Assembly: GCA_041658605.1 (NCBI GenBank)
Contig: JBAZZU010000003.1
Location: 23,354-87,353, forward strand
DNA from: Thermoleophilia bacterium
GTDB lineage: Bacteria; Actinomycetota; Thermoleophilia; BMS3ABIN01
Reading direction: 5' to 3'
DNA length: 64,000 nt
This document shows positions 2,453-28,073 of this stretch, in pieces (position 1 is the first letter of the stretch; each line of letters opens with the position of its first letter). The notes beneath the pieces are model-generated. The model did not search any database. It saw nothing but the letters and a program-made list of their open reading frames with translations, and was not told the origin of the DNA. The position numbers and the translations under genes are program-made.

Positions 2453-2865
2453 TTGAACTGTCGATGTTCTCCAGCCCGGCACAGATAGCGCTGGCCAGGA
2501 TAACCGGGCTCGGCTCGGGTATGCCTGCGAGCGCACCGGGTACCACGACGATGATCCTTCGCCTTCGACGAATCGAGGATCCCCAGCGCGACCTGGAAGA
2601 ACTCCAGACGAAGGACTGGGACGACCCGCGAGCGAAGGAGGCCCGCAAGCGAATCAAGGCCGGCGCTGACTCAGGTGTCGGCCTGGACTCCGATGGGCAT
2701 TACACGCTCGACGGGCGCCGCTGCTGCTACGGGCTGATGCACCGGCTCTCAAACCGCGAAAAAGTGGCCTGTGAAGACGGCGTTGAGCGGGACCTTCAAT
2801 GCAATCGCCGGTGGCGCTGTTCCTGCCGGGCGCTCTGGGAAGCGCAGTACGAGGTGCTATCGTGA
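2449..2865 (+). CDS. Hypothetical Cys-containing protein
   Basis: GTG 2449 overlaps the previous stop. Ends with TGA overlapping the GTG of the portal candidate. Confidence 0.35.
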   Translation: MIELSMFSSPAQIALARITGLGSGMPASAPGTTTMILRLRRIEDPQRDLEELQTKDWDDPRAKEARKRIKAGADSGVGLDSDGHYTLDGRRCCYGLMHRLSNREKVACEDGVERDLQCNRRWRCSCRALWEAQYEVLS

Positions 2866-6013: not shown

Positions 6014-6064
6014 CCGCGAGATCGCGGCCTCTTACTCCCCTCCCCGAACCTCAAAGGAAAAACC

Positions 6065-8524: not shown

Positions 8525-8539
8525 CGGAGACCTCGACAA

Positions 8540-8579
8540 GGCCCCCATCGGGATCATCCTGGTGGGGGCGTTTTCTTTC
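8540..8579 (+). terminator. Rho-independent terminator after the 819-aa gene
   Basis: 13-bp GC-rich stem (GCCCCCATCGGGAT / ATCCTGGTGGGGGC, two G-U wobbles), 3-nt loop, then GTTTTCTTTC. Confidence 0.6.
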
Positions 8580-8590
8580 AGGAGTTCAAG

Positions 8591-11769: not shown

Positions 11770-12466
11770 CCCTCGCCTGTTGGATGATGAGTTCGCCGAC
11801 GACTTCCCCGGATACAAGAGCCCGAAGCTCCAGGCGGTCATCCAGGCCACGAAGGACCACCTGACGAATCACCCCGAAACCGGCGCCGTGCTTTTCTGTG
11901 AGTACAACGGCGGGATTGAGGCGATGAAGTCGAGCCTGATCGAGGAAGGCTACCGCCCCGAGGACATCGGGGTCTATACGGGCAAGGTGTCAAGCCAGCG
12001 GAAACGGCGCGACCTTCAGAACGACCTGAACAGCGGCAAGATCAAGATCCTCCTTGGCAACACGGCGGCACTTGAGACGGGCGCGAACCTCCAGAAACGC
12101 GCTAACTTTGTCGCTCATCTCAACACGCCATGGGCCCCGGATCGGCTTGTCCAGTCAACCGGGCGAGTCCATCGGCAAGGGCAGGAACGGAAGGTTACCG
12201 TATTTCGCCCGACCGGATCCGAGGTAGAAGAACTCATCGAGCGCGTTGTCTCGCGCAAGCTCCTTCAATCCTCACAGGCGACCGGCGTAACGATGGCCGC
12301 TGACTCTCATGTAGCTGTCTCCATGCGCCGAAAGGGCCGCGAAAAGCTCGACTCCTCCACGATCGCGAAACTGCTGGGAATCGACCCGTCGCTGTTGTCG
12401 CAGAAGGGCGATGAAGCAGAACGCGAGGCCGCAGAGATCAAGGAAATGAAGAAGAGGAAGAAATGA
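11573..12466 (+). CDS. SNF2-family helicase C-terminal lobe (orphan, possibly fused to upstream ORF by frameshift)
   Basis: Helicase-C motifs GKIKILLGNTAALETGANL and QSTGRVHRQGQ (motif VI). No SNF2 N-lobe upstream in any frame. TTG start right after an in-frame TAA. Overlaps 9958..11769 by 197 nt. Confidence 0.5.
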   Translation: MERHGCAKRRPAELRDKEGPGYDGPANQRLSAAKAGRLGPAHRAAAKSAPWTSQGVLLRWQQLAIDPRLLDDEFADDFPGYKSPKLQAVIQATKDHLTNHPETGAVLFCEYNGGIEAMKSSLIEEGYRPEDIGVYTGKVSSQRKRRDLQNDLNSGKIKILLGNTAALETGANLQKRANFVAHLNTPWAPDRLVQSTGRVHRQGQERKVTVFRPTGSEVEELIERVVSRKLLQSSQATGVTMAADSHVAVSMRRKGREKLDSSTIAKLLGIDPSLLSQKGDEAEREAAEIKEMKKRKK

Positions 12467-14184
12467 ACGACTCCGAAGCCACGAATCTCCTGCGCGCCTT
12501 GGCCCCCGTCGGTGGGTCTCCTGGTGGGTTCGACCCCAAGAAGCGCCGCGTGCTCGTCATGCGGCTTCATCGGTATCTGGTGGAGGATGGCGGCTACATC
12601 CCAGCGTGGCTCAAGAACGAGGCGGCCGAGATGCGGAAGGGCGTGATCCTTTACGTCGAGTTGCACAAGGCCGCTCAACTTGGGCTCTTCGGTGGTCAGG
12701 GTCGGGAGTTTCGCCCGGAGGTGCCGAAGCCGCATGGTGGTGGTAAGCCTCGTGGGCCGCAGCAGACCGGGATGACCTCGGGCGGGCTCTTCGGCACGGT
12801 CTGGGTCAAGGACCATGATCGGGTGGTGAATGGGCACGTCGAGCACGTTGACGGTCATGAGAGGAAGGTGGTGGGGAATGTCCACGCGCCCACGTTGACA
12901 GGAAAGGAGGAAGGTGGTAGGGTCGAGAGTGAACCTTCTCCGAAAGAGGAAAGCATGACCCGGCACCCTGACGCTCCGGAAGGATTCGAACCGGTTGACA
13001 TGTCCATTCATGGAGCCCATAAGGCACCATCGAACGAAAAGGGGCAACAGGGCTCTTTCAACTACTGGTATCCGACGCTGGAATCGGCTCGGGCAGGCCA
13101 GAAGCACCATGAAGAGCAGCAACGAGTAAAGGGGGATATGAAGCGGGCGCGGGAACATGAGAAGATCGCTCGCGGATCGGCAAAGTTCATTGAGGCTGAA
13201 ACTCAACGAAGAGCAAAACTCGCGGCGGCAGAGATTCGGCGCACCGCTGTTCCTTTTGTTCACCCGAGTATCTATGAATATCGGGACTACATCAGAGAGC
13301 AGGGTGGTTTCGTGGAAGATGGTGGGTGGAAGGTGCCAGCCGCAGCTCACGCCGCCATTACGGAGCACATCGAGGAGCGGAATCGGAAATTGGCCATCAA
13401 GCGCCAAACGAAGCCATCAGTAACCCCACCGGTTCCGGCCGCACTGAAATACATACCCATACAGCACTCGAACACCTACGACTATCGGGAAGACATCAAG
13501 AAAGCCGGTGGTCGGTGGGACAATAACCAGCGGGTCTGGATGGTCCCGGAAAACAGGCATGCCGAACTAATCGCCAAGATGACGCCTGCGCCTGCGCCCC
13601 CTCCCGCAGCTCCTTTGCCGACGATCGCACCAGGAGAAAAGGAATACACCAGATTTGAGAATGGATCGCGTCGTATGAAGCCCGCTCATCCGTTGGCTGT
13701 CGGAGACGTGGTGTTTCGAGGGGATGGCGCAAACCGAACTTACCAGACGGTCACGAAAGTAAGGCCTTCGCTCTTCCGTTCCGAAAACGATCAGGAGGAC
13801 TTTGGAGAAACCGGAAGAGGTGCAGGTTGGTATCATCCGTATACCGTTCGACCTGCTACTGAGGAGGAATCGGCCAACCTCCGCGGCAAGCACGCAGAAG
13901 CAGACGCAAAGGTCAAGGCTGCGACTGCCGCAAAAATGGCGCTACAGTCAGCCATCCAGACGGCGGAATATCCGAAGAAGGCTGAACCATCAGGAGAGAG
14001 CATCAAGATTGGTCAAAATGAAACAATTCAGGTTGAGCCAGACCTTCAACACGCGTGGCACATCAAGTATAACGGTCGTGATGGCGACAACTGGGCCTAC
14101 AACAACCTGGGCGGCCACTCGATCGCGCATCGGTTCCCAATGACTCCTGAACTATCAGGACACATCGAAGCGCTGAAAGTCTAA
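12463..14184 (+). CDS. Hypothetical protein (573 aa) with QLGLFGG motif and two tandem ~40-aa repeats
   Basis: ATGA overlap with the upstream gene. KAAQLGLFGG...RVVNGHVEHV module shared with 16185..18518. Repeats YEYRDYIREQGGFVEDGGWKVP / YDYREDIKKAGGRWDNNQRVWMVP. Confidence 0.5.
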   Translation: MNDSEATNLLRALAPVGGSPGGFDPKKRRVLVMRLHRYLVEDGGYIPAWLKNEAAEMRKGVILYVELHKAAQLGLFGGQGREFRPEVPKPHGGGKPRGPQQTGMTSGGLFGTVWVKDHDRVVNGHVEHVDGHERKVVGNVHAPTLTGKEEGGRVESEPSPKEESMTRHPDAPEGFEPVDMSIHGAHKAPSNEKGQQGSFNYWYPTLESARAGQKHHEEQQRVKGDMKRAREHEKIARGSAKFIEAETQRRAKLAAAEIRRTAVPFVHPSIYEYRDYIREQGGFVEDGGWKVPAAAHAAITEHIEERNRKLAIKRQTKPSVTPPVPAALKYIPIQHSNTYDYREDIKKAGGRWDNNQRVWMVPENRHAELIAKMTPAPAPPPAAPLPTIAPGEKEYTRFENGSRRMKPAHPLAVGDVVFRGDGANRTYQTVTKVRPSLFRSENDQEDFGETGRGAGWYHPYTVRPATEEESANLRGKHAEADAKVKAATAAKMALQSAIQTAEYPKKAEPSGESIKIGQNETIQVEPDLQHAWHIKYNGRDGDNWAYNNLGGHSIAHRFPMTPELSGHIEALKV

Positions 14185-14186
14185 TC

Positions 14187-14465
14187 GTGCTGCTTCTTTT
14201 CGTTCTCCTCCTCTCCTGCGCCCCAGAACCGCCAGAAGTCTGCAATATGGTCTCCGTGCCCTGGGAGCGCTCGACGCTCAAGGCGATCGAGGTTTACCTC
14301 GACTACCTGCCCTGTGAGGCCACGATCGGCTGCGAGTCGCTTAACGGGACCGTGACGATTTACGACCTGGAGCCCGTTTGCGGAGTCGCCTGCCGGGTAT
14401 ACGGATCCTGCCGCCCGGACGAAACGCCGCTGGAACTTCGATACTCCGCGTGCGACTGCTCATAG
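14187..14465 (+). CDS. Cys-rich putative lipoprotein (92 aa)
   Basis: GTG start. Signal peptide LLLFVLLLSC with lipobox L-L-S-C. 9 further Cys. Tail-to-tail 6-nt overlap with the antisense methyltransferase. Confidence 0.4.
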   Translation: MLLLFVLLLSCAPEPPEVCNMVSVPWERSTLKAIEVYLDYLPCEATIGCESLNGTVTIYDLEPVCGVACRVYGSCRPDETPLELRYSACDCS

Positions 14466-15272
14466 CAGCGTAGTTTGCTCCCGCTCCTCATCCTGGCCCA
14501 TTGGCAGACCTATCTGAACGCCAGCGGCCTCGATGCTCTCCAACCTGCGCGCCGCGATGTCGAGATAAGCCGGCTCCGTCTCGATCCCGATGTACTGGCG
14601 CCCAGAGAGTAATGCAGCCTCTCCGATGGCCCCAGAACCTGCGAAAGGGTCAAGGACCGTGCCGCCATGGGTCACGACGGAAACGAGCCACGCGCAGACC
14701 CTTGGGGGCTTTTCGGTGACGTGCTCGCGGTCCCTTGAAGACGCCTCGGTGACGTAACCGGGCAGGCAGCCGATCCCTGGTCTGTCGGTCGGCATCGGTC
14801 CAAGGGTTCCGACGGCGATGAATTCGCCCGGGTTCCAGAACCAGCCCATCCGAGGCCTTGACGATCCGGGAGGCTTCAACCACGGGTGGATCCCGCGAAG
14901 GATGAACCCGCCCACTTGGAGCGCATCACAGACCGCGCCAACCTGCCGCCAGTCGGAAAAGACGCATGCCGGACTGCCGGGGAGCATGACCCGAGTCGCA
15001 CGGGCCGCAATCTCCCCAAGCCAGATCGTGAAGGATCGCTGGTCTCGGTTGTCGCCTGCGAAGTTCGGAAGGTATTCGGCCTGCGCGGAATCGGAGCTGA
15101 GATACTTCTTGCGGGTGTCTAGCGTTCGATCACCACGGAAGGCACCCCCCGAAGAGTACGGGGGATCCGTGATCAGGGCGTCAACGCGGACGCGTTCGCG
15201 TTCGAGATCCGCGAGTACGAACAGGGAGTCGCCGTTGTAGAGTTTCCAGGTCTTTCCTTGGGCGTGTAGCAT
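14460..15272 (-). CDS. Beta-class DNA methyltransferase (N6-adenine or N4-cytosine)
   Basis: Motif IV LITDPPYSSGG near the N-terminus and motif I DPFAGSGAIG near the C-terminus (IV before I gives beta class). Confidence 0.8.
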   Translation of the reverse strand: MLHAQGKTWKLYNGDSLFVLADLERERVRVDALITDPPYSSGGAFRGDRTLDTRKKYLSSDSAQAEYLPNFAGDNRDQRSFTIWLGEIAARATRVMLPGSPACVFSDWRQVGAVCDALQVGGFILRGIHPWLKPPGSSRPRMGWFWNPGEFIAVGTLGPMPTDRPGIGCLPGYVTEASSRDREHVTEKPPRVCAWLVSVVTHGGTVLDPFAGSGAIGEAALLSGRQYIGIETEPAYLDIAARRLESIEAAGVQIGLPMGQDEEREQTTLL

Positions 15273-15437: not shown

Positions 15438-15653
15438 ATGACCTGCCCCCGCTGCCACCAGCAATTCACCCCGACAGCAGAGGAGTCCAAGTGCCCCGAC
15501 TGCGAGCGGGAGATCCTTCGTCGCAGGTACGAGATCGCCAGGATCCGCCGACATGGCGAGACCTGGCTTCTCGTCTCCCCGCGCCATGTTCTCGCGGGTG
15601 GGTTCGCCTCGCGCGAGCAGGCCGAGAGGTTCCGTTCCGCCAGGGTGGGGTAG
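15438..15653 (+). CDS. Small zinc-ribbon protein (71 aa)
   Basis: CPRC...CPDC pair. Lies divergent from the methyltransferase across a 165-bp intergenic region. Confidence 0.4.
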   Translation: MTCPRCHQQFTPTAEESKCPDCEREILRRRYEIARIRRHGETWLLVSPRHVLAGGFASREQAERFRSARVG

Positions 15654-15660
15654 ATCCGGA

Positions 15661-16158
15661 ATGGACCTCTTCAACCATCAAGGCGCCGTCTTCTCGGAGG
15701 ATCGCGTCTACCGCTATCGGCTCTGGCGGCATCCTCCTGATACCCGGTTCGCCGCGTTCATCGGGCTCAACCCGAGCACCGCTGACGAAACCCAGAACGA
15801 CCCGACCGTGACCCGTTGTATCGGGTTCGCTCGGTCGTGGGGTCTTGCGGGCATGGAGATGTTGAACCTTTACGGGTTTCGCTCGACGGATCCCGATCCG
15901 ATGTTCAAGCACTCTGCTCCTATAGGACCGGGCAACGACGAGGCGATCCTGGCGGTCGCTCGTGAGGCGTCGATCGTGATCGGCTGCTGGGGCGCGTTTC
16001 CTCAAGCCCGCATCCGTGCTATCGAGGTTCATAGGATGCTTTCCTCTGCCGGTATCGTGCTTCATGCTCTGCAATTGACTTCGCAGGGTTGGCCTCGGCA
16101 TCCTCTCTACCTCTGCCGAGACCGGGAGCCCTTTCCATGGAGGATCCCTGCGGGGTAA
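15661..16158 (+). CDS. DUF1643-family protein
   Basis: YRYRLWR...FIGLNPSTADETQNDPTVTRCIGFA...NLYGFRSTDP...CWGAF closely matches the DUF1643 signature as I recall it. ATG at 15661 inside track ORF 15553..16158. Confidence 0.6.
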   Translation: MDLFNHQGAVFSEDRVYRYRLWRHPPDTRFAAFIGLNPSTADETQNDPTVTRCIGFARSWGLAGMEMLNLYGFRSTDPDPMFKHSAPIGPGNDEAILAVAREASIVIGCWGAFPQARIRAIEVHRMLSSAGIVLHALQLTSQGWPRHPLYLCRDREPFPWRIPAG

Positions 16159-16184: not shown

Positions 16185-18518
16185 ATGCACCTCTATCGCC
16201 CCGTTCGATCCGCTGACGGTTCTCTTTCGCTACGTGCCTCGGAACTGGTCTTCCGTCGCCCCGATGTGGCCCCCCGCGAGCTGCGCAAGGCCCTTCGTCT
16301 TCCGATCGGCATCGGCTGGCGTGACATCGACCAGGACGTGGACGGTGGCAAGGAGAAGAGGATCGTGGAGTGGGGAACGGTCTCCCGCTACTGGCCCTCA
16401 CTCGAAGCCGCCATGGCCGCAGAACGGCGCTACCTGATCCTCGGGTCGCAGGATGACGGCTACGGGATTCCCCAGGTCGAGCGGCCCGGGTCGGTCCAGG
16501 CCTGGGAAGCACGGGAGCGCGCCCGTTCGGCTCATGAGATGGTGATCTACTACTCGCCCGACGGGTGGACGGCTCTTGCTGGTGACGAGCACGGTGGGCA
16601 GGTCAAGGTGCTCGACGACTGCCGCGCGTACCGCTGGCCCTCGCTCATGGACGCGCTCTCTGCTGAGACGGCGTGGAGAGAGAAGGCGGACGCCGCGACC
16701 CTCAAACAGGTCCAGGCCGAAGCGCGCGGTGGAGAACCGAAGCCTTCGTTCTACGGTTACGGCGCGTTCATGGACGCGGCGCGGAAGTGTGCGGAGTTCA
16801 TGGCGCTTGCGGATCCGGGTGTCGGGGCGCCTCTCGTTCGGTTCACGGTGGACCTTCGCAAGGCCGCTCAAATGGGGTTGTTCGGAGGGGAGACACGGAT
16901 CCCGGAGCGGTCGCATCAAATGGGCCTCTTCGGTGGGACCGCGCACGTCAAGGCGCATACCCGGGTGGTCCATGGGCATGTGATCGAGGTGAAGGCCCAT
17001 GATCGGGAGGTCGAGCATGGGGCGAACCATCCTCCCGAGGTGATGGGGCACTCGGCGCCGGGACATCGGGTGGATGTGGATGCGAAGGTGGCATGGCCAG
17101 AAGTCAAAGAAGGCAACCTGTACCGCATCCATTTCGACACCCGCGACGAAGGCCAGCCGCACGGCGACTATATCGCCAAACGAGCCTCGACGAATCATCA
17201 CCAGTTCGAGAACCTTCTCAACGGCGCCCCCATGATGTTGAACCGGGATGCGGAAGGGCAGGGGAAGCACAGTCTGAGCGGCAAGGAAGGTGTCAGGATC
17301 CGAAGCGTTACAGGGTTTGAGGATGCTCTGGATGAGGCGAAAGCCAAGCATGAGATCATCCGAAAGGACGCGGAACGGGCGGCTTTGGCACCGAAGGTTG
17401 AGGAGAAGCCCTCCATTTCCGTCGATCCGGCCCAAATCGTCAAACCAGCGGACATTCAACCACCGGGCCCCATTCGTGACTACACCGACATGAAGCCATC
17501 GGTCGGTATGAAGGTTCACGGGCACTACATGCGGTCACCCTTCACCGGCACGGTCCATAACATCGAATCCGACTCAAGCGGATACCCTGGCACCCAGAAC
17601 GATCGCAGGTTGTGGGTGAAACTTGATAGCCCCCTGGTGGTCCCGGAAGGTGATTCGTCATACCCCGCCGGTCACGTTCGGCGCGAGGCAGGGGAAAGCA
17701 TCATTTTCCACGGGGAAAAACAGGCGTCAGGACATACACGGGTTCATCATGACACCCATCAAACCCTGGATTCGGTAGATAATCCGCTTCCTGGGTTGGT
17801 GCCCTTCGTAACAGACTACGATTCACGAAAGAAAACCCATACCCTGTCCGTGAACGGGAAGATGTCGAGCCATCCGACGCATGAAGCCGCGTTTGCTGCG
17901 GGGATGGAGGAGGTCAAGCCCACAACGCAACTTATCACCGAAGATGAGCTGAGAGAGCAGACCATCAAGCCCCCACCCAAGCCCACCCTATCCGTCAAAC
18001 CTGCGGAAATCGTTCAGGTTATACCGGGTATGGAGCACGAACATCCGGACTTTCCAGGCCACCGGTTGACCCGTGTGCAAACCCGGGAGAGGGACATCAG
18101 TTCCCGTGGTCGGGGACATGATTTATACACAATGATTGCCGGCCCAGAAGATGACACAATGCACTGGAGCGACAAGCATGTTGGCCATGAAGTAATTTCG
18201 GACGATTATCCAAGGTCAAGGTCCATACGATCAAGCGATAGACATGGTGAAACCTATGCGCATATGCCGCTCAAGCCCGGTAGTGTGATTATGCGTCTCA
18301 AAAAGAATACCGACGGGACAACCCAGAAGTCTGCGTTAGTTGTTCCGGAAAGTGGAGGAGACACATACCCAAGACACAAAGATCAACCACTGGACGCCGA
18401 TAGTTTGCCGTCTGCAACGGTAACCTCACGCAAAGCGGCTACTGGATGGGAAACTGTAGTAGATATCCCCGAAGGGATATCGGGTGTCAAGGCTGGTAAG
18501 CGAATTTACCGAGGATAG
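16185..18518 (+). CDS. Hypothetical protein (777 aa) with two QMGLFGG motifs; paralog of 12463..14184 module
   Basis: KAAQMGLFGG...HQMGLFGG...RVVHGHVIEVKAHDREV parallels the 12463 protein. His-rich C-terminal half with lower GC. Confidence 0.5.
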   Translation: MHLYRPVRSADGSLSLRASELVFRRPDVAPRELRKALRLPIGIGWRDIDQDVDGGKEKRIVEWGTVSRYWPSLEAAMAAERRYLILGSQDDGYGIPQVERPGSVQAWEARERARSAHEMVIYYSPDGWTALAGDEHGGQVKVLDDCRAYRWPSLMDALSAETAWREKADAATLKQVQAEARGGEPKPSFYGYGAFMDAARKCAEFMALADPGVGAPLVRFTVDLRKAAQMGLFGGETRIPERSHQMGLFGGTAHVKAHTRVVHGHVIEVKAHDREVEHGANHPPEVMGHSAPGHRVDVDAKVAWPEVKEGNLYRIHFDTRDEGQPHGDYIAKRASTNHHQFENLLNGAPMMLNRDAEGQGKHSLSGKEGVRIRSVTGFEDALDEAKAKHEIIRKDAERAALAPKVEEKPSISVDPAQIVKPADIQPPGPIRDYTDMKPSVGMKVHGHYMRSPFTGTVHNIESDSSGYPGTQNDRRLWVKLDSPLVVPEGDSSYPAGHVRREAGESIIFHGEKQASGHTRVHHDTHQTLDSVDNPLPGLVPFVTDYDSRKKTHTLSVNGKMSSHPTHEAAFAAGMEEVKPTTQLITEDELREQTIKPPPKPTLSVKPAEIVQVIPGMEHEHPDFPGHRLTRVQTRERDISSRGRGHDLYTMIAGPEDDTMHWSDKHVGHEVISDDYPRSRSIRSSDRHGETYAHMPLKPGSVIMRLKKNTDGTTQKSALVVPESGGDTYPRHKDQPLDADSLPSATVTSRKAATGWETVVDIPEGISGVKAGKRIYRG

Positions 18519-18521
18519 CCC

Positions 18522-21500
18522 ATGTTCACCCCCTGCAAGTGCTCCAAAGGCTGCAAGGCCCACGCCATCATCACAGCGCTCGACATGGACGGGACCACCT
18601 ACCCTGTGCGAGTCCCCTATGAGCACCGCTACTCCTCGATCGGCTGGGGCGACCGTCCGCGCGTGCGGTTCGGTGATTCCGTAGCCGTCGAAGTGGCGCG
18701 CGGAGAGAAGGGCGTCCAGGCTCTTGACGAACTCGGCAACCTTCACCGGTTGAACCATGGCGCGTTCTCCACCTGGATTCCGGAAAGGAAGGGCAAGGCT
18801 CTCAAAAAGGCGGAAGTCAAAGCCGGTCAACGATGGATCACGGTCCACCCCGGCGGCGAAGGCTCAACGGGCGTCCCCATCCTGATTCAGGAGGAGAAGG
18901 ACGGAACCCACCGAGTCGTGGCAGGCGCGGGCGGGAAACTGACGCACCTCCGGCTTGAGAACGTCAAGAGCGCGGACGAATACGCCAAGTCCAAAGCCGA
19001 CAAGAAGGCCGCAAAGAAAGAGAAGGACAAGACCGCTCCGAAGGAAGTCAAGGAGACCAAGAAGGAAGCCCACGAGAAGAAGCGCGAGGCCGAGCGCCAG
19101 TTCGTCAAAAAGGTGAGCACGAAACTCGGGGGAGTCTCCGAGGATCGCAAGCGTGACGAATCCGAATCTCCCGCCGTCGCACGTCGGCTTGACGCGCAGC
19201 ATCATCGAAAGCAGGTCAACGAGGCCAAGAAGCGCGCCCACGGAGCCATGCAGGCGGTCGTTGCAGAGCGGACCGGGCAGGAGAGGGCAAAGGCGCTCAC
19301 CTCCGAGGATACTCCCGAGGTCTCCGCTCACGTTCAGGAAACGATTCGCGCAGAACTCGACGACGAGGAAGCCGCTCAGAAGGCGCGCAAGGAAGCCCGC
19401 GCGCCAAAGATGATGGCCTCCCGGGCCGTGGACCCCGGAGCGCAAGAGAAAGCCGTCGTCCATGCCGTTGAAGCGGTCAAGCAGGCCCCTGAGCAGCTCG
19501 ACAAGACACTTGAAGCGCTCGGCGGGCGTACTGACTCGGGCGAGGTTCTCCGGCTCTCTGTCGTGCCTGCCGTGGAGGCGAAACGCCGGTCCCTGCAAGC
19601 GCTCCAGGACGCCCAGATCATCCATGAAGCCCTATCGAACGGGCCCCCGAAAGACGAGAAGCAGCAGGCGATCGTGGAGCAGGCCCTGGGCGGCGCGAAA
19701 CTCGGAACCGAGGAGGCCAAGGAAGCACTCCAGACCGCCATGGTCTCGAAGGTCAACGAAGCCGAGCGGCACGAAGTCCAGTCCAGGAAGCTCGACCAGA
19801 TCGCACGGGACAAGGGCGAAGACGTGGCCGACCGTGCTCTCCGGGCGACCGACGCGGCAAGGGCCATCGCTCGCGAAACACAGGAAGCGCGGCGCCTGGG
19901 ACTCGACAATCCCGAGAAGACGCCCCTTACTGTGCCTGAAACCGATGAACTCATGGACGTGGTGAAGGACCTCCAGGACCTGAAAGCGAAGACCCGAGCC
20001 CTGAAGAACGTCGTCAAGGACGCGGAAAAGGGCAACTTCGATCGGTCGCGCCGTGCGTTCAAGATGGACGTTCAAGCGGCCCCCAAAGACGTGGAGATGT
20101 CGATCGAGGAAGAGGTTCAGCGCTCACTCACGGAGCAGCTCCTCGGCGCGGTCAAGACCGATCGCCCGGAGTACATCCAGGGCGTCACCGCTGGGCACTA
20201 TGACGCCCTCGCGGATGTCGGCTTGCAGATTGGCGGCCAGCGCTACCTGGACCGCCCCACGGTGGACGCTCTCGGCGCGAAGAATGCCGCGATCCTACTC
20301 CGGTATGGGCTTGACCAGGACGGGCACGATATGGACGCCGTTCGCCAGGCCGTGGAAGAGTCGCACGTTGACGCGGTGAAAACCGAAGCCGCCAAAGCCA
20401 TCGAGAAAGCGCGATCCTACGTCCCTGGGTTGGTCCACGAAGTCGATACAACCGAAGACGCCGAAGCAGCAATGGCGCACTTGGACGCCCACGAATCCGA
20501 GATCGTCTCAGCGCAGAAGGCCCTTTCCTCGGCGATCGGGAGGCTCGAAGGTACGGCTACCCTTGGCCAGGCGCTGCGCGACAAGATGCCCGATAGCCTT
20601 TCCGTTCGGGGCACCTCTCTTGAATCGTCTCAGCAGTGGGTTCATTCGCTCGGGCTTCACCCTGCCGATTACGAGGTGAACGCTGCACGGAACGAGATTA
20701 CGATCCCCCGCCGATCGTGGGACAAACTGCTATCCCGAGACTCGCGCGAGGACATCGACAACCGGCGCGTGGTCAACGAGATCAAGGCAGGTCAGCACGA
20801 CATCAAGGGTTGGCTTCCTCCCGGCATTGCCTATCGAGAGGCCTCCACGTTCACCGCGCCCGTTCCCAGCGCTCCTCGCATGTGGGAACCGCTTTCGTTC
20901 GATGGCGACCTCGACGAGGCCATCAAGACACACGTCGGCGCCCGGTTGGCATCCGGTGAGCATATCGGGGAGATTGCGTCTGACATCTCCTCGGAAGGTG
21001 TTGCTTCGCAGGCCCCGAGCGCGAAGGAATACCGCGCGGCACTCGAGCGGCACTTCCCTCTCTACAAGGAAGGTGGAAAGGAACGGCTCACCGAAGCCCT
21101 GGCGGCTCTTGGACCTCGGCCGGAGAACGAGAACGAGGCGATCGAGTGGGACCGAAAAGCCATTAAGGCGGAGCAAGCGGAAAAGGTAGGCCTGACGCAC
21201 TTCGCCGACAAGTGGGAGTCCTGGGCCCAGGACTACATGGAAAAGAAGCACGGTGGCGAGGGAGCCTATCACTCGCAGAACCTGCATCCCGAGGACGTGG
21301 CGACCCGTGAGGCCATTTTCCGGACGCTGGCGGATCACCCGGAGGGCAAGATCGCCTTCAAGCCGTCGGGTCAACTGACACCGCAGGAAGAGGGGGTGAT
21401 TCGGGACCGGTACTATCAGAGGATGGGGATCGACCCGAAGGTGAAGGTTGACGAGGCAAGGTTCCAAAGGGAGATGGCCCAGGCCAGTATGCCGGAAGGG

Positions 21501-24224
21501 CAGTGGGAGACCATGGTCAAGGAACACGAAGGAGAAGGCATAACTCCAGGGCAGGCCAAGGCCCGAGCCATGTCTCACCTTGGAGAGAAGGTCAAGAATG
21601 AGGCGTATTACCAAGAACTGACGAAACCATGGGACAAGACGGCTGGAACTGCATCTATAGACGAACCAAAGGATGTAAAACAACGTCGCCAATACCTGAC
21701 GCGCGAACTCGCCGCACTCGGGAAAGAGCCCGACCGCCAAGACAAAGAGGCCAACCAGAAATGGCAAGAAGCGCGTAATGCTGTTTTTGAAAAGGCCGAC
21801 ACCGATTCTGGCAAGGAAGAACTTGATGAGACCAGTCCCGAATACCGGGCTTGGCAAAAACGACGTGATGCTGTTCTTGCCCGTCATCCGCGAGCGGGTA
21901 TGCAAAGCGCAATCGATAGTCTCGACAAAGCCGATCCGGAGTACGCAAGCAAAGTCGAAGCCATCAAACAGGACGCAGCGACCGCCCCCACCGCCTGGGG
22001 CAACTACGTTGAAGCGCACGGTTCGCGGCAACTGGCGATCGAGGCCCTGCAAGATGAGATGAGGGGCGAATTCGTCAAGACGTACCAGGAGCACCACGGA
22101 AAGGTCACCGGGAACCCGCTACGGGTGGGCGTTCAGGACGTAACCAACAAGGCGCGCCATATCCGGGCAACAGGATCCCCCGAGGAAATCGCGCAAGCCA
22201 GGGCAGAGGAAAGGTCCAGGCTATCCAGTCTCCAGAAGAGGCAGGGCGGCGGATTTACCGAGATGGGCGGTGCAGGGTCGGCGAAAGCCCTGTTCACAAA
22301 AGCACTTGAACAAGACGAAATCGACAAGTCAAGTCAACTCGCTATGTTCGGATCGGCTACCTCCTCGGTGGCGGACCTCCCCGAAAAGAAGATCGAGCCG
22401 AAGACCGGCCAGCGGTGGAGTCTCGGAACCCGCGCGGAATCGCAACTTGAGAGCGTCATCAATGGCGGCCTGGGCCAGCAGTTTCAACCAGGAAGCCCGA
22501 TCCGGCTTTTCGGTGGGCTCAACATGGATGGCGATCGAATCCACCAGCAGCGGGTTCTTCGCCAACTCGATCGGGTCAAAAGGATGGCGGCGCTTCTCGG
22601 CACGGGCGCGGGGAAGTCGCTCACCTCGATCGCAGGGTTCACCCAGGCGCACGCGAAGGGTGAGGCATCCCACGGGCTCTATCTGGTCCCTGCCGCAGTC
22701 CAAGACCAGTTCGGCGGCGAGATGTTGCGCTACACGCAGCCCGGGAAATACAACTGGGCAACGGGTGGCGGAAAGAGCCACGCGGAACGGGTACGGATGC
22801 TCAAGGATCCGTCTATTCATATGCGGGTTATGACACACCAGTCCTTCCGGGATACTGCCCTAAAACTCATGGCAGACCACCATGGTCGGACTACCGAGAA
22901 GATGACAGAGGACTTCGGAAAGGCAGACCCAAAGACCCGCGCCCGGTGGATGCGTGAGGCCTTCGATGCCCACGGGATCCCCCGCCACTTCGTCTATTAT
23001 GACGAGGCGCACACCGCGACCTCCGAGAACGAGAAGAGCGCCTCTCTGACTCATGACGTTGCGACGGCGGTAACGCATCCGTCGAACGCTACCCATCTGC
23101 TTCTCGGGACCGCCACCCCCACGAAGAACAACACCGGAGAGATGCACTCATGGGCCTCGCTACTCGATCCGGACAAGTACGCCGATCGGTGGAAGTTCAT
23201 GCAGAACTTTGGGAGGGAAACCGCCTGGAACCCGAACGCGATCCGTCAAGAACTTGGGCACCGGGTTTACACCGCCAGAATCGACCCCGAAGGAGTATCC
23301 CGAACAGACACCGACAACCCGACCGTGGAGGAAAAGGAAGTCCAGACTGGTGAGAATATGTGGGGTCCAACCTACGAAAAGCAGAAGGTGAAGTCTGCCG
23401 GCAAGCCGATCGAACTTCACCCTACCCAGAAGGCCCGGGTAGATGAGATCACGGCGGCTTATGAGCAGGCATCCACCTCGTTCAAGAAGGGCCATGTGGA
23501 CGTGGAGAGCATCCGGAAAATCAACCCGGCACCGTTCGAGGGTAAGACCGATGAGCAGGCCCAAAGCATCGCGCGGAACATGATGAAGGGCCTTGGCTTC
23601 ACCCGTGACGCGGCGCTGGAGCGGGCGATCAACCGCTCGCCTGTGGGCCAGAACGCGAAACTGGACGCCCTGGCCTCTGTCGTCCAGCATGACCTCGCGC
23701 AGAACTGGACCGATCGGAAAGGCAACGCGCGCAAGGGGAAGGCCTCGATCATCTTTTCGGACTCGGCGCAGGATGGAAAACTCATCAACCAGCACCTTCG
23801 CTCTCTTGGCGTCCGCTCGGCTTTCTATCACGGTGGGCTTCCGAACGAGCAGAAAGAAGCCATCCGCACCGGGTTCCAACCCGAGCAAGGCGAGCCGAAG
23901 CACGACGTTATCGTCGCCACGTCGGCGGCCGAGGCGGGTCTGAACCTCCAACGGGCAAGCGTGCTGCACAATTACGACGTGCCCCAGACTGAGAAGAGCC
24001 ACGCGCAGAGAGCCGGGCGAGCGTACCGGCAGGGGCAACTTGGCGACGTGGAGATTCACAACTGGCACACGAACACGGCGTTCGAGCGTCGGGCGCTTCA
24101 ACTGCTCAAGGAGAAGCGGTATCTCGCTTCCGTGTTTCAGACTCCGATCGGCCATATGGACGACACAGGAACGGGCCTGCGTTATACTCGGATCATCTCA
24201 CGCAAACATGAGGCTGCGGCATGA
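18522..24224 (+). CDS. Giant 1900-aa protein with C-terminal SNF2-family helicase (polyvalent/DarB-like)
   Basis: Complete SF2/SNF2 core: Walker A GTGAGKSLT, DEAH (YYDEAHTA), motif III LLGTATPTKNNTGEMHSWASLLDP, helicase-C with QRAGRAYRQGQ. Long Lys/Glu coiled-coil N-terminal 1300 aa. QLAMF motif just before the helicase. Confidence 0.7.
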   Translation: MFTPCKCSKGCKAHAIITALDMDGTTYPVRVPYEHRYSSIGWGDRPRVRFGDSVAVEVARGEKGVQALDELGNLHRLNHGAFSTWIPERKGKALKKAEVKAGQRWITVHPGGEGSTGVPILIQEEKDGTHRVVAGAGGKLTHLRLENVKSADEYAKSKADKKAAKKEKDKTAPKEVKETKKEAHEKKREAERQFVKKVSTKLGGVSEDRKRDESESPAVARRLDAQHHRKQVNEAKKRAHGAMQAVVAERTGQERAKALTSEDTPEVSAHVQETIRAELDDEEAAQKARKEARAPKMMASRAVDPGAQEKAVVHAVEAVKQAPEQLDKTLEALGGRTDSGEVLRLSVVPAVEAKRRSLQALQDAQIIHEALSNGPPKDEKQQAIVEQALGGAKLGTEEAKEALQTAMVSKVNEAERHEVQSRKLDQIARDKGEDVADRALRATDAARAIARETQEARRLGLDNPEKTPLTVPETDELMDVVKDLQDLKAKTRALKNVVKDAEKGNFDRSRRAFKMDVQAAPKDVEMSIEEEVQRSLTEQLLGAVKTDRPEYIQGVTAGHYDALADVGLQIGGQRYLDRPTVDALGAKNAAILLRYGLDQDGHDMDAVRQAVEESHVDAVKTEAAKAIEKARSYVPGLVHEVDTTEDAEAAMAHLDAHESEIVSAQKALSSAIGRLEGTATLGQALRDKMPDSLSVRGTSLESSQQWVHSLGLHPADYEVNAARNEITIPRRSWDKLLSRDSREDIDNRRVVNEIKAGQHDIKGWLPPGIAYREASTFTAPVPSAPRMWEPLSFDGDLDEAIKTHVGARLASGEHIGEIASDISSEGVASQAPSAKEYRAALERHFPLYKEGGKERLTEALAALGPRPENENEAIEWDRKAIKAEQAEKVGLTHFADKWESWAQDYMEKKHGGEGAYHSQNLHPEDVATREAIFRTLADHPEGKIAFKPSGQLTPQEEGVIRDRYYQRMGIDPKVKVDEARFQREMAQASMPEGQWETMVKEHEGEGITPGQAKARAMSHLGEKVKNEAYYQELTKPWDKTAGTASIDEPKDVKQRRQYLTRELAALGKEPDRQDKEANQKWQEARNAVFEKADTDSGKEELDETSPEYRAWQKRRDAVLARHPRAGMQSAIDSLDKADPEYASKVEAIKQDAATAPTAWGNYVEAHGSRQLAIEALQDEMRGEFVKTYQEHHGKVTGNPLRVGVQDVTNKARHIRATGSPEEIAQARAEERSRLSSLQKRQGGGFTEMGGAGSAKALFTKALEQDEIDKSSQLAMFGSATSSVADLPEKKIEPKTGQRWSLGTRAESQLESVINGGLGQQFQPGSPIRLFGGLNMDGDRIHQQRVLRQLDRVKRMAALLGTGAGKSLTSIAGFTQAHAKGEASHGLYLVPAAVQDQFGGEMLRYTQPGKYNWATGGGKSHAERVRMLKDPSIHMRVMTHQSFRDTALKLMADHHGRTTEKMTEDFGKADPKTRARWMREAFDAHGIPRHFVYYDEAHTATSENEKSASLTHDVATAVTHPSNATHLLLGTATPTKNNTGEMHSWASLLDPDKYADRWKFMQNFGRETAWNPNAIRQELGHRVYTARIDPEGVSRTDTDNPTVEEKEVQTGENMWGPTYEKQKVKSAGKPIELHPTQKARVDEITAAYEQASTSFKKGHVDVESIRKINPAPFEGKTDEQAQSIARNMMKGLGFTRDAALERAINRSPVGQNAKLDALASVVQHDLAQNWTDRKGNARKGKASIIFSDSAQDGKLINQHLRSLGVRSAFYHGGLPNEQKEAIRTGFQPEQGEPKHDVIVATSAAEAGLNLQRASVLHNYDVPQTEKSHAQRAGRAYRQGQLGDVEIHNWHTNTAFERRALQLLKEKRYLASVFQTPIGHMDDTGTGLRYTRIISRKHEAAA

Positions 24225-24385
24225 AGATGAGAAAGAAAAAAGTAGACTTCTCAGCGGTAATCCGGCCAGTCAAAGAAGAAACTTCCTCGCACTTCGGATC
24301 GCGTGTCGTCGATATACGGTGTGTAGATTTCTCGGTTGACTCGATCCGTGCGTTTATCAAGCGGATGGAGCAGGAACCACTATGA
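24221..24385 (+). CDS. Small AT-rich ORF (54 aa), translationally coupled
   Basis: ATGA overlaps at both ends (giant gene stop and next gene start). Not in ORF track (<60 aa). GC much lower than surroundings. Coordinates approximate. Confidence 0.3.
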   Translation: MKMRKKKVDFSAVIRPVKEETSSHFGSRVVDIRCVDFSVDSIRAFIKRMEQEPL

Positions 24386-24624
24386 ACGACCGACAAGAGA
24401 TGATCAAACTCCTCGCGTCTCTGGAGGCCAACAAGCAGGCAATCCAGGGCGCAAGAAAGGACCTGGCCCGGGAATGCTCCGAGCGTCAGGATGCCGTGTC
24501 TCCTGCCCTGGAAACGATCGGCGAGCACCCCGACATGGAAGACGCGGGGATCCTCGGGCACCGCTACCACAAGACGATTCTGGCCGATCACCATGCGCTT
24601 GGCGAACTGGCGCGCCGTGGCTGA
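24382..24624 (+). CDS. Hypothetical protein (80 aa)
   Basis: ATGA-coupled ORF. Confidence 0.4.
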   Translation: MNDRQEMIKLLASLEANKQAIQGARKDLARECSERQDAVSPALETIGEHPDMEDAGILGHRYHKTILADHHALGELARRG

Positions 24625-24853
24625 CCTGTCGGCGTTCAAGATCCGATGTCCTGCCTGCGGTTACGATATGTGGGCCGTGCGCGCGGGTCAGTGGACGCTC
24701 AAAACCGCTATTATCCGGGTGGACGACGGGGTCTTCATTGCACGATGCCCAGAAGGGCGGTGCAAAGGTGAAGCCGTGGTCCCGATGGTTCTCCTGCACT
24801 CCGACGCTACCCGCCGAATTGTGAGAATTCGAAAAAACAGCGCTGAGGTATAG
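24617..24853 (+). CDS. Small zinc-ribbon protein (78 aa)
   Basis: GTG overlapping the upstream stop. CPACGYDMW...CPEGRC motifs. Confidence 0.3.
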   Translation: MADLSAFKIRCPACGYDMWAVRAGQWTLKTAIIRVDDGVFIARCPEGRCKGEAVVPMVLLHSDATRRIVRIRKNSAEV

Positions 24854-24891: not shown

Positions 24892-24932
24892 GGCCCTACC
24901 CGGATCCCCTCCCGGGTAGGGCCTTCTTTTGT
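24892..24932 (+). terminator. Rho-independent terminator before the head module
   Basis: Perfect 11-bp stem GCCCTACCCGG / CCGGGTAGGGC, 8-nt loop, then CTTCTTTTGTTGG. Coordinates +/-1. Confidence 0.55.
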
Positions 24933-25726
24933 TGGTACTCATGTCGATCCCCTTCGAACTCTCCGGATCCCTCCTCGCTCGCCCGCTCCGAAAAGCGGTG
25001 AGCGCGCGGACTCGTCCGCTTGAAGGGTTCCTGACTACCTACGGCGTACTCAGCGAAAACGGCGGGATCATCCCGACCGCTGACCGAGACGGGCAGGTCA
25101 TGGAAGCCGCCTCTGCTCTGGGGCTCATCGACTTTCAGGAGTACCTCCGAACCGGGCTCTGGAACGATACCCACGATGACACCGTGATTGTAGGGCGCTC
25201 CGATGGCCTGGAGTTTCACAACGGCTCGACGAAGTTGTCACAGGCTCACCGGAAGGTCGGCTACTTCACGGCCGGGCACTTGTTCGACCCTGCGAACCCG
25301 GCTTCTTTCGGGGACTACAAGCCCTCGCCAAAGGAACTGGAACGCTCGGACTACTTCTGGGACCTCGCCAGCAGTACCCTGGGCGAAACCGATCGCGGGT
25401 TGGCTTTTTCGGCTCATGGCCGGATGTGGACCGACCCGACAAATACCAGGATTTTGACGGCGAAGATTGATCAGGTGGCGGTCTGCGAAACCCCGGTCAA
25501 TCCCTACTGTCCTGCCGAGATCCCCGAAGTGTCGGCTGAACTTGCGAAGGCGGTCAAGAAGCCGACTGCTTCCTCTTTGCTTGCTTCCCTCAAACCGGAG
25601 ACGCGGGAAAAGCTGGTCGCCATCATCAAGAAGCGTTTCCCCCATCTGTCAGACGCGGAGATCGATACCGTTCTTCTGAAACTGGCAGAAAACCACCACT
25701 ATGGAGTAAAATCCGATGCCCAATGA
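24929..25726 (+). CDS. Prohead protease, HK97 (U35/S78) family
   Basis: WNDTHDDTVIVGR resembles the catalytic-His block of HK97 gp4 (LWQHNPDQPIGRV). Candidate Ser in GLAFSAHG. Followed by scaffold and MCP. Confidence 0.55.
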   Translation: MLVLMSIPFELSGSLLARPLRKAVSARTRPLEGFLTTYGVLSENGGIIPTADRDGQVMEAASALGLIDFQEYLRTGLWNDTHDDTVIVGRSDGLEFHNGSTKLSQAHRKVGYFTAGHLFDPANPASFGDYKPSPKELERSDYFWDLASSTLGETDRGLAFSAHGRMWTDPTNTRILTAKIDQVAVCETPVNPYCPAEIPEVSAELAKAVKKPTASSLLASLKPETREKLVAIIKKRFPHLSDAEIDTVLLKLAENHHYGVKSDAQ

Positions 25727-26393
25727 AAAGAAGCCGCTCGATGACCTGATCGAGCAGATCGATGCCTCTGTCGTCACCTCGGCAATGCAGCCGCTGGTGG
25801 ACGGGTTCAAGGACCTTGCGAAAGCGGTCAAGGACTTCACCGACAAGGAAGACGACGAGAAGGAAGACAAGGAAGAGGAGTCCGACCCCGACATCCACGA
25901 GGACAAGGAGGACGAATCCGATCCTGACATCCACGAGGACAAGGAAGAGCCCCCGCACAAGGCCAAGGAAGACGACTCCGACGCCATGGAAAAGGCGATC
26001 GCGCTCGACGTGACCGAGTACCTTGACCGGTGGTCCAGGGATCTCCCGGCGCTCACCTCCGAAGTCAAGGCGCTCCGCAAGGACAACGCGGACCTTCGGA
26101 AGGCGGTGGCCGCTTACGCGGACCATTCGGCAGCGCTCACCAAGGCCGTGCTCTCCCTCGCCGAAGTCCGCAAGCCTGCCGAGGCCTCCCCGGCTCCCGT
26201 GGTCGCCGAAGCCGCTGGAGAGCGCTTCGAGGCTCCGGTCGTTCTGTCCGTGATTCCCATGGAGAAACTCACCAAGGCCGTGATGTCCGGCGTCATCGAC
26301 GGTCGCCACTTCGACAACTACACCTCCACCAAGCGTTTCGACCCCAACGACATCACGAACGATCGGCTTCACAAAGCCGTCTCCGCTCTCTGA
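25716..26393 (+). CDS. Scaffolding protein (acidic, repeat-containing)
   Basis: Highly acidic with tandem KEDESDPDIHEDKE repeats. Coiled-coil C-terminus. Sits between protease and MCP. Confidence 0.5.
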   Translation: MPNEKKPLDDLIEQIDASVVTSAMQPLVDGFKDLAKAVKDFTDKEDDEKEDKEEESDPDIHEDKEDESDPDIHEDKEEPPHKAKEDDSDAMEKAIALDVTEYLDRWSRDLPALTSEVKALRKDNADLRKAVAAYADHSAALTKAVLSLAEVRKPAEASPAPVVAEAAGERFEAPVVLSVIPMEKLTKAVMSGVIDGRHFDNYTSTKRFDPNDITNDRLHKAVSAL

Positions 26394-26424: not shown

Positions 26425-28026
26425 ATGAACCCTCAGACTCTCCTCCTCGCCTTGACGATGGCCTATTCGTTCTCCGCTGACGGCTCCGTCTCGATGAACA
26501 AAGCCGTCACATCCAGCACGATCGCCAGCGCGGTCCCCGAGTCGCTGGAAATGCAGGCCGCCATCGCGACCTGGAGCGACCGAACCCCGGGCGTCAACAC
26601 CCTGCTCAAGCTCATCCCGCGCGCCGTCGCCACGAAGCAGGAGCACAAGTACGTCAGCCTCGACTCCTGGGGCGACGTGGCCCACCAGACCGGCATGGGC
26701 ACCGAGACCGGCACCCCCGCGAGCCTCCAGTTCTCCTCGACCACCCCGGTTGTGTGGCTCCAGATCTGCAACCAGGCGACCGACGTCTACTTCATGGCCG
26801 AGCTCCAGAAGATGGTCGGCATTGAAGGGACCGTGGATCCCGTCGTCGTCGCCACCAACGCCACCCTCAAGCGTGAAGCGTGGCTCACCAACCGCAACAT
26901 GTACCTGCTCGACACCAGTAAGAGCCGCGCAGGCGTCGGCGCCGCCGGTCGCGTCTACAAGGGCGTCCTTCAGCAGGTTCGCGAGGGCACCGACGGCACC
27001 ACGGGTTCCTCGACCTTCGGCTCGCACGAGATCGACCTTCGTGGCGCGGACATCACCTCCGATAACATCCGCACCCAGATCGCCCACATCCTGGAGTACT
27101 ACGGCATGGCCAACGTGCTCCTGATGCCGCCCACCCCGCGAGGCAACCTGGAAAGCTCCCTCGAAGGCGCCAACCGCATCACCATGGGCGGCGTGGACAT
27201 TCGAACCCACCTTCTGGGCAACTCGATCGCCGGCCTCCAGAGCCAGGGCAACGTCATGTGGTTCGCCACCGAGCTCGCGCTCAGCGCGAAGAACTCGAAG
27301 CCCCGATACACCGCGCCTCCCGCCGGCTGGGCAACCACCACGGTCCCGACCGTCGTGTCTGCCGTGGTCGCTGGTGGAACCTCGGGCAACGCCTCGCTGT
27401 GGGGCGCCTCGGACGATGGCAACATCTACCACGTCGTCACCGAGGTTGTCAACGAGCTCGAAGGCGCGGGAACCCGTGAGCCTGCCGGCGCCGCCTACAA
27501 CGCGGTCGCAGTCGGGCAGGAAGTCCGCCTGACCCTCACCCCGGGTTCCGTGGATGCCGATCGCCTCCGCGTCTACCGTGGCCACGATACCGACGTGAGC
27601 CCCGGCGGCACCGCTGGCGCCGTGACTGAGGCTTGGTTCCTCTTCGAGGTGGCCGCGAACGGCGCGGTTCCCGTCGTGACCTACGACTACAACCAGAGCC
27701 TGCCCCGCACCGCCTGGGCCGTCGCGCTCGACATCCAGAGCCCGGTCGCCGACGCCATGTTCAACCCGAGAGGCAACTCCCTGGGCGCCAACTATGCCGA
27801 CGCCAACGACGCCGCGATCTCGCAGATCGGCTACCGCGACAACGGTATGACCTCGAACGTGAGCTTCGCGCAGCTCGGGCCCGCTCCCATGCGCCTCCAG
27901 CTCGCCCCCGTGGCCCTGACCGCCCCGATGGGCCGCCCCGTGATCCTCCGCGTCGGCGCCCCCGTCGTGCGGATCCCGCAGCGCTGCTTCACCTTCAAGA
28001 ACGTTCGTGACGTGGTTTACAACTAG
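26425..28026 (+). CDS. Major capsid protein (HK97-fold candidate)
   Basis: 533-aa protein after protease and scaffold. AAGGA RBS. Strong terminator downstream. Confidence 0.55.
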   Translation: MNPQTLLLALTMAYSFSADGSVSMNKAVTSSTIASAVPESLEMQAAIATWSDRTPGVNTLLKLIPRAVATKQEHKYVSLDSWGDVAHQTGMGTETGTPASLQFSSTTPVVWLQICNQATDVYFMAELQKMVGIEGTVDPVVVATNATLKREAWLTNRNMYLLDTSKSRAGVGAAGRVYKGVLQQVREGTDGTTGSSTFGSHEIDLRGADITSDNIRTQIAHILEYYGMANVLLMPPTPRGNLESSLEGANRITMGGVDIRTHLLGNSIAGLQSQGNVMWFATELALSAKNSKPRYTAPPAGWATTTVPTVVSAVVAGGTSGNASLWGASDDGNIYHVVTEVVNELEGAGTREPAGAAYNAVAVGQEVRLTLTPGSVDADRLRVYRGHDTDVSPGGTAGAVTEAWFLFEVAANGAVPVVTYDYNQSLPRTAWAVALDIQSPVADAMFNPRGNSLGANYADANDAAISQIGYRDNGMTSNVSFAQLGPAPMRLQLAPVALTAPMGRPVILRVGAPVVRIPQRCFTFKNVRDVVYN

Positions 28027-28045
28027 TCGCGGCTTCGAGGTATAA

Positions 28046-28073
28046 GGGGATCGCTCTGCGGTCCCTTTTTTCT
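28046..28073 (+). terminator. Rho-independent terminator after major capsid gene
   Basis: GGGGATCGC-TCT-GCGGTCCC hairpin followed by TTTTTTCTT. Confidence 0.5.

Follow-up and report, generated by a model that had tools for sequence, protein, structure and literature searches.

What does a protein of 1900 amino acids with a helicase-type motor do among the head genes of a phage? This question is raised by a giant gene on a 64,000-nucleotide (nt) stretch of contig JBAZZU010000003.1, assigned to a Thermoleophilia bacterium (the whole stretch is called the window in the following), which is a segment of a tailed-phage genome. Our analysis points to a virion-packaged and injected SNF2-type translocase of double-stranded DNA (dsDNA) that would belong to the class of polyvalent proteins, a reading for which we see about an even chance. 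Packaging and injection are inferred from the gene order in the window and in related phages, from the relocation of the gene to another structural module in one relative, from effector fusions in other relatives, and from the genes in the neighborhood. The location in the head region, which had been noticed in a preliminary description made from the sequence, was confirmed by a large terminase gene at 2..1609, a portal gene at 2799..4508 and a gene for the major capsid protein at 26425..28026.

The giant gene extends from 18522 to 24224 on the plus strand as a single unbroken open reading frame (ORF) with an ATG start codon, which lies 4 nt past the stop of the upstream ORF (16185..18518). 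The product has 1900 amino acids, a mass of 210 kDa and an isoelectric point of 7.0. A public protein with 100% identity exists (P0001, 'MAG: helicase-related protein [Thermoleophilia bacterium]', on a 96,738-bp contig) and belongs to a set of 64 homologues, the other 63 of which span 940-2110 amino acids. Alignments of the closest homologues begin at residue 2-5 of the giant protein, and therefore both the gene and its ATG start are real. At the DNA level the gene matched none of 50,697 phage records.

The part of the protein with a recognizable function is the C-terminus, where residues 1341-1900 (22542..24221, plus strand) form the core of an SNF2-type ATPase/translocase of helicase superfamily 2 (SF2), identified by Pfam, by PHROG and by motifs I-VI. 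The motif set is complete, and every motif quoted in the preliminary description could be located in the translation. Motif I (GTGAGKS) corresponds to residues 1360-1366, motif Ia to 1386-1400, motif II (DEAH) to 1494-1497, motif III (GTATPTKNN) to 1529-1537, motif IV (IIFSDS) to 1743-1748, motif V (AGLNLQ) to 1805-1810 and motif VI (QRAGRAYRQGQ) to 1829-1839. A motif V of the GLNLQ type, a motif III of the TATPxxN type and a motif VI of the form QxxGRxxRxGQ are what we take to be the SNF2 flavor of SF2. The gap of about 205 residues between motif III (1537) and motif IV (1743) is of a size that would be compatible with an SNF2-specific helical insert. Among the profile matches, Pfam Helicase_C was clear (3.9e-17, 62.9 bits with a gathering score of 23.5), Pfam SNF2-rel_dom passed marginally (26.7 bits with a gathering score of 24.9), and PHROG 62 'DNA helicase' matched at 9e-58. 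The catalytic residues, namely K1365 of Walker A, D1494/E1495 of Walker B and Q1829/R1830/R1833/R1836 of motif VI, are conserved in at least 85% of the 64 homologues, which makes an active motor almost certain.

Matches to PDB sequences were confined to the generic C-lobe of SF2 enzymes and included RecQ, DEAD-box proteins, ISWI, CHD, SsoRad54 and RapA. Cellular SNF2 ATPases (RapA/HepA, SsoRad54, ISWI/CHD) and the DISARM helicase DrmD thus share the motor motifs and give weak C-lobe sequence matches, but their scores stay far under the family cut-offs (54.6 bits for DrmD, with a cut-off of 610) and their accessory domains are unrelated. Inteins were detected by Pfam scan in 9 of 24 long relatives that share the N-terminal block A described below, three of them also with LAGLIDADG domains. 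In one relative (P0160) the intein was mapped to the helicase region, and inteins in the helicase domain of relatives would fit a conserved and functionally important site.

The N-terminal 1340 residues are of a very different kind. The preliminary description had found no recognizable domain in the first ~1300 residues, and this holds: residues 1-1340 gave zero family matches in Pfam, PHROG and NCBIfam scans, and residues 1-1300 matched nothing among PDB sequences at E<=1. It had also described this part as a long coiled coil. Long charged helices do occur, but only at about residues 151-499 (K/R 19%, D/E 19%); residues 1-146 are beta-rich and residues 500-1340 are conserved and confidently predicted as all-alpha in AlphaFold2 models, which covered residues 1-500 (predicted local distance difference test, pLDDT, 87.6) and 480-1340 (pLDDT 81.5). 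From these models and the alignment of homologues we distinguished six regions upstream of the motor. The module at residues 1-92 (18522..18797, plus strand) is beta-rich and carries a C-x-C...H motif together with the conserved motifs RVPW / GWGDRPRV / HG.Y; only strands are predicted for it (pLDDT 81-94), it is common to only ~20-30 of the closest homologues, and it occupies what we call the variable slot. Block A, a small beta unit at residues 94-150 (18801..18971, plus strand), follows with the near-invariant pattern G.RWITVHP.G....G.P..I....G...GAGGKL..L.L and a conservation of at least 85-90%. The charged helical region at residues 151-480 (18972..19961, plus strand) is modeled as helices that are 20-45 residues long and mostly above a pLDDT of 90, has 19.4% K+R and 19.4% D+E, and is low in sequence conservation; aromatic residues are absent across residues 201-500. 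Block B, conserved and all-alpha, spans residues 481-1000 (19962..21521, plus strand). It is followed by a variable insert at residues 1001-1104 (21522..21833, plus strand), with an alignment occupancy of 0.02-0.32 and low pLDDT, and by a conserved pre-helicase region at residues 1105-1340 (21834..22541, plus strand), which is helical in the model. The pre-helicase region and the motor are ~50-55% identical to the closest homologues, compared with 38-40% in the N-terminal part. No Pfam model covers block A, block B or the 1-92 module, and a profile of block A gave noise alone when compared to PDB sequences.

Two alternatives are raised by this architecture. The small beta domains at the N-terminus might dock onto host RNA polymerase, in which case an injected, RapA-like protein could use its motor to remodel or recycle the polymerase and so favor early phage transcription. 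Foldseek did return matches to a Pol II complex chain taken as SPT5 (E ~0.1), but they were non-significant: with the model of residues 1-500, nothing in the PDB was found at E<=0.001, and template modeling (TM) scores were ~0.1. Block A furthermore has no PDB relative by profile search, and, unlike in RapA, ~1200 residues lie between the beta domains and the motor. We consider a RapA-like role improbable. The ~1200 alpha-helical residues with their long helices might instead indicate a protein that serves mainly in structure or assembly, for example as a scaffold inside the head, a component of an inner body or a ruler, with the helicase domain being secondary. The gene does sit among morphogenesis genes, and the top matches of the model of residues 480-1340 in BFVD were tape-measure proteins. 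These matches were also non-significant, with nothing at E<=0.001 (E-values of at least 0.045, TM ~0.07), the ATPase motifs are strictly conserved, and the position of a scaffold is already taken by a separate coiled-coil ORF at 25716..26393 with a sub-threshold match to DivIVA. A structural role of this kind appears quite improbable to us.

Giant size, an SF2/SNF2-like motor and a gene beside the head genes are also features of DarB of phage P1, and the preliminary description had likened the protein to DarB-type proteins. P1 DarB (2255 amino acids) combines an N6-adenine methyltransferase with an SNF2-like helicase and is a head-internal antirestriction protein; its gene adjoins the portal gene and, like the giant gene, is followed by a small ORF (ulx in P1). 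A genuine DarB-type protein would protect incoming DNA by methylation coupled to translocation. The comparison does not hold beyond this general likeness. Pfam found no methyltransferase family in the giant protein at E<=1, although the same scan detected N6_Mtase and Eco57I in the DarB-like protein of Bordetella phage PHB04. BLASTP similarity to P1 DarB was limited to motor motifs (residues 1771-1865, 95 amino acids, E 2e-7, and 57 amino acids in the region of motif I, E 0.018), and the N-terminal 1340 residues are wholly different. P1 DarB itself matched proteins of ~2100 amino acids in PHB04 and in a Nitrosomonas prophage (L006) at 1e-51, and those proteins carry N6_Mtase, Eco57I and SNF2 domains. 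Of the accessory proteins, neither DarA, Hdf, Ulx, DdrA nor DdrB, nor DarB itself, had a tblastn match at E<=0.01 in the 64-kb window. Related phages of the PHB04 type encode a true DarB homologue in addition to the protein described here, and the Thermus phage Lalka27a likewise encodes a separate DarB and Ulx (bioRxiv 10.1101/2024.08.14.607894). In the high-GC subclade nearest to the window, no DarB-like gene was seen upstream of the giant gene. Because of the co-occurrence with true DarB homologues, the family is a second and distinct giant helicase commonly found beside DarB rather than a substitute for it, and a DarB-type function in the strict sense was rejected as very improbable indeed.

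If not as a DarB, how is the gene placed in other phages? With tblastn we found relatives with 27-32% identity in PHB04, Morganella phage Mecenats66 and the Thermus phages phiMa, Cumys and Lalka, so that cultured relatives exist. Their annotation is merely helicase or hypothetical: ATI15643 of PHB04 is a 'superfamily II DNA or RNA helicase', ORF61 of Mecenats66 a 'helicase', and phiMa_61 and Lalka27a_41 are each a 'putative helicase' (PHROG 62). Across blocks A, B and C these members of the family are 27-32% identical to the giant protein, and their genes are arranged in the same order, but with 1371-1715 amino acids they are shorter and start almost directly at block A, except for Lalka27a_41, which has ~80 extra residues. 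A scan of IMG/VR revealed relatives in at least 93 viral loci, and the family is widespread. In most related viral contigs the gene keeps a place flanked by portal or minor-head genes on one side and by protease, scaffold and capsid genes on the other. Gene order was compared in 77 IMG/VR loci that include the helicase part, of which 64 extend more than 3 kb downstream. In 58 of these 64 loci a 'prohead protease' gene of the PHB04/Mecenats66 type lies downstream on the same strand, at a median distance of 640 nt, and in 49 a capsid gene is found downstream. Upstream, related loci have a 'minor head' gene (28), a portal gene (15) or a giant DarB-like gene (29). Further neighbors in relatives include a true DarB homologue followed by a 108-amino-acid ORF as well as InPase/LPD1, zeta-toxin, HD, (p)ppGpp and phosphatase genes. 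Lalka27a is an exception in that its giant gene is located in the tail module, with tape-measure and tail-protein genes on one side and baseplate genes on the other. This location is another structural module and not a replication module.

The giant gene does not appear to travel alone. Directly downstream of it, at 24382..24624 on the plus strand, lies a conserved ORF of ~80 amino acids with an ATG start, which is probably a partner gene. Its product is 30% identical (E 6e-8) to the product of an 86-amino-acid ORF that follows the giant gene in a close relative (L005). Three hidden Markov models (HMMs), seeded from the lineages PHB04/Mecenats66, window/L005 and phiMa/Lalka, converged on the same ORFs with 46-49 loci each, and taken together they cover 51 of the 80 related loci, in which the partner ORF lies a median of 16 nt from the stop of the giant gene. 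Giant gene and partner stay paired even in the tail module of Lalka27a. P1 Ulx was not matched by the HMMs of this family, which is a further difference from the darB-ulx arrangement. A 162-amino-acid ORF with a TTG start (24336..24824), which had been listed mechanically for this region, is probably spurious, the real gene being 24382..24624.

An indirect argument for packaging comes from the domains with which block A is combined in other proteins. An exhaustive profile search with block A against 1.84 billion representatives gave 863 clusters at E<=0.001, of which 311 reached E<=1e-10. Its usual place is near the N-terminus of proteins of 1500-2100 amino acids, and in some proteins of 2265-4150 amino acids it lies deep within the sequence. 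By Pfam scan, the intein-bearing P0160 joins ART-PolyVal to block A and the helicase, P0139, P0037 and P0038 join InPase to the same pair, and P0089 does so with DUF6884. Block A also occurs in helicase-less proteins, namely P0064, with InPase, LPD1 and a C-terminal block A, and P0184 (4150 amino acids), with InPase, ART-PolyVal, three copies of block A and LPD1. Judging from these architectures, variation appears confined to the part N-terminal to block A, and the organization is constant from block A onward. This conserved part of the family, made up of block A, the charged helical region, block B, the pre-helicase region and the motor, is what we call the chassis. We also observed two or three copies of block A per protein in P0184, P0084 and P0072; such a repetition would be more in keeping with a binding domain than with a targeting signal present only once. 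In the relative P0012, an extra insert of ~260 amino acids separates the N-terminal module from block A.

InPase, ART-PolyVal and LPD1 are hallmarks of the polyvalent proteins described by Iyer, Burroughs, Anand, de Souza and Aravind (Iyer et al. 2017, PMC5512222), who argued that such proteins are packaged and delivered together with the DNA and who noted two SNF2-clade helicase families among them. The giant protein resembles this class in being large and encoded in the neighborhood of portal and terminase genes, in having as its motor an SNF2-clade ATPase, which is a recurrent module there, and in having relatives with InPase and ART-PolyVal, with LPD1 found in other block A proteins. The packaging neighborhood expected of a polyvalent protein is present both on the map of the window and, in the form of the protease-type gene, downstream of the gene in the 58 related loci. 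As for a combination of several domains, the SNF2 core is the one recognized domain in the giant protein, and InPase, ART-PolyVal and DUF6884 are added in its relatives. There are differences as well. The giant protein has none of the domains of the Pfam models named after that study and no methylase partner domain, its block A, block B and 1-92 module are outside all Pfam models, and, while many phage members of the class have a head-incorporation fusion of the MuF/portal type, Phage_Mu_F is absent from it. That databases label the family 'helicase' and that giant SNF2-containing phage proteins occur in packaging neighborhoods was already known. We did not find in the literature searched the methylase-less architecture, the three modules without Pfam match, the chassis with its variable slot, the ~80-amino-acid partner, or the side-by-side arrangement with DarB. 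The constant organization of chassis and small partner gene was worked out in this analysis.

The main rival to a packaged protein is a helicase that is expressed late, stays in the infected cell and aids head filling or DNA maturation, for instance by stripping proteins from concatemeric DNA or by resolving branches ahead of the terminase, so that the site in the head module would reflect co-expression only. The gene is indeed part of a late structural operon with terminase, portal and capsid genes, and such a position fits a late intracellular role as well. We consider this explanation unlikely on balance, though deserving of serious attention, as it leaves unexplained the fusions to InPase, ART-PolyVal and DUF6884, the occurrence of block A in helicase-less polyvalent proteins, the relocation of giant gene and partner to the tail module of Lalka27a, and the DarB-like and toxin-type cargo genes in the neighborhood. 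Several other observations nevertheless weigh against packaging and injection, some of which speak for the late helicase at the same time. In the literature searched we found neither evidence for virion association of any homologue nor other virion proteomics, genetics or functional data for members of the family. Pfam recognizes neither Phage_Mu_F nor another known packaging domain in the giant protein, and the only nearby MuF-like candidate gene (4505..5638) is sub-threshold. The N-terminal 1340 residues have no structural or sequence relative hinting at a mechanism, and the module at residues 1-92 is no recognized effector. Finally, the head would have to accommodate, and the tail to let through, a folded alpha-helical protein of 210 kDa.

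There is a precedent for a giant helicase inside a virion, namely gp69 of phage JC1, a giant DarB-like helicase from the morphogenesis module that was detected in virions by mass spectrometry (PMC9144972). The packaging and co-injection proposed in the preliminary description receive indirect support from the synteny with head modules, from the location in the tail module of Lalka27a and from the InPase and ART-PolyVal fusions of relatives. In the packaged-translocase reading, the giant protein would be made late, loaded into the procapsid and ejected into the cell along with the genome. The ATP-driven motor might then travel along the incoming phage DNA and either displace or outrun DNA-bound defense complexes of the host or ready the DNA for early functions. 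A lineage-specific 'warhead' would occupy the slot ahead of block A; it may be the Cys/His beta domain in the window and an InPase, an ADP-ribosyltransferase or DUF6884 elsewhere, and the ~80-amino-acid downstream ORF could encode a dedicated partner such as a chaperone or a loading adaptor. Any more specific activity, be it the displacement of restriction or BREX-type complexes or the remodeling of DNA-protein complexes, both of which the preliminary description had brought up, an aid to DNA entry or an action on RNA polymerase, is speculation.

Should the family be packaged, giant SNF2 motors that phages inject would form two widespread classes, with this family joining DarB. Being methylase-free and often encoded beside DarB, such motors might point to an unexplored step of early infection, such as the clearing or pulling of DNA or counter-defense. 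The chassis, constant but with an exchangeable N-terminal slot, would in that case also lend itself naturally to the delivery of proteins into bacteria. If it is not packaged, the protein is simply a large late helicase. A bolder version, which we regard as doubtful, is that chassis and ~80-amino-acid partner are a previously unrecognized delivery machine, a modular platform for effector delivery distinct from both DarB and the MuF-fused polyvalent proteins. The injected translocase would here be loaded into the capsid via block A, its motor would pull or clear the phage genome into the cytoplasm after ejection, and the interchangeable N-terminal 'warhead' (ADP-ribosyltransferase, InPase or Cys/His domain) would be carried along.

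In the window, the slot between the portal gene, its left boundary (plus strand, identified by PHROG portal matches and by tblastn to the Mecenats66 portal), and the gene for the major capsid protein, its right boundary (plus strand, phrog_752 at 3.5e-22 and homologous to the capsid genes of related loci), holds ~19 kb of mostly unique large ORFs. Among the big ORFs the giant gene comes last and is the sole conserved anchor, and the slot looks like a hypervariable cargo island. The MuF-like candidate that follows the portal gene on the plus strand is possibly a minor head protein related to MuF/SPP1 gp7; the match is weak (TIGR01641 at E=0.0035, below the cut-off), and an HPNC motif at the C-terminus is also present in ORF60 of Mecenats66, a 'putative minor head protein'. 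A tblastn row naming this ORF60 had given rise to the idea of a MuF minor-head domain fused to the N-terminus of the giant protein, which was rejected since the match begins at residue 3 of Mecenats66 ORF61, and ORF60 and ORF61 merely overlap by 4 nt.

Between 6065 and 14184 the plus strand encodes large ORFs of 819, 456, 603 and 573 amino acids that are nearly without relatives, their sole matches being to small DUFs (DUF5661, and DUF5710 and DUF5881 below their gathering scores). In the same region an ORF at 11573..12466 (plus strand), overlapping the ORF at 9958..11769, encodes an orphan helicase C-lobe (Helicase_C at 5e-12, with PHROG matches that include 'DarB-like antirestriction'). Its product shares 43% identity with the C-terminal region of a 1213-amino-acid SNF2 protein encoded upstream of the giant gene in L005, and the ORF may be a remnant or part of a split gene. 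A split DarB-like gene in 6065..14184 was considered and rejected, as the C-lobe stands on its own, and Walker A, DEAH and methylase motifs are missing upstream of it in every frame of 6000-14200. The island further contains a gene for an N6_N4 DNA methyltransferase (14460..15272, 2.9e-19), which lies on the minus strand of the otherwise plus-strand island, and a gene for a DUF1643 protein (15553..16158, plus strand, 4e-36). The 777-amino-acid ORF that ends 4 nt before the giant gene (plus strand) is unique to this contig: it matched only itself among 5.8 billion proteins and had no match in Pfam, PHROG, NCBIfam or by phage tblastn.

Downstream of the giant gene and the small ORF, a consensus scan identified a strong terminator-like hairpin that would close their unit, on the plus strand at 24892..24923, with a stem of 12 bp including 10 G-C pairs, followed by a T run. 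Past this hairpin come an ORF in the position of the prohead protease, the coiled-coil ORF in the position of the scaffold, and then the capsid gene. The first of these ORFs (24929..25726, plus strand) has counterparts of 44-47% identity in the closest relatives. Its assignment as a relative of the prohead protease of Mecenats66 and PHB04 was rejected (hhalign probability 1.4), and it is a positional equivalent only. A second strong terminator-like hairpin with a T run was found after the capsid gene on the plus strand (28044-28068), and the two hairpins suggest separate transcription units.

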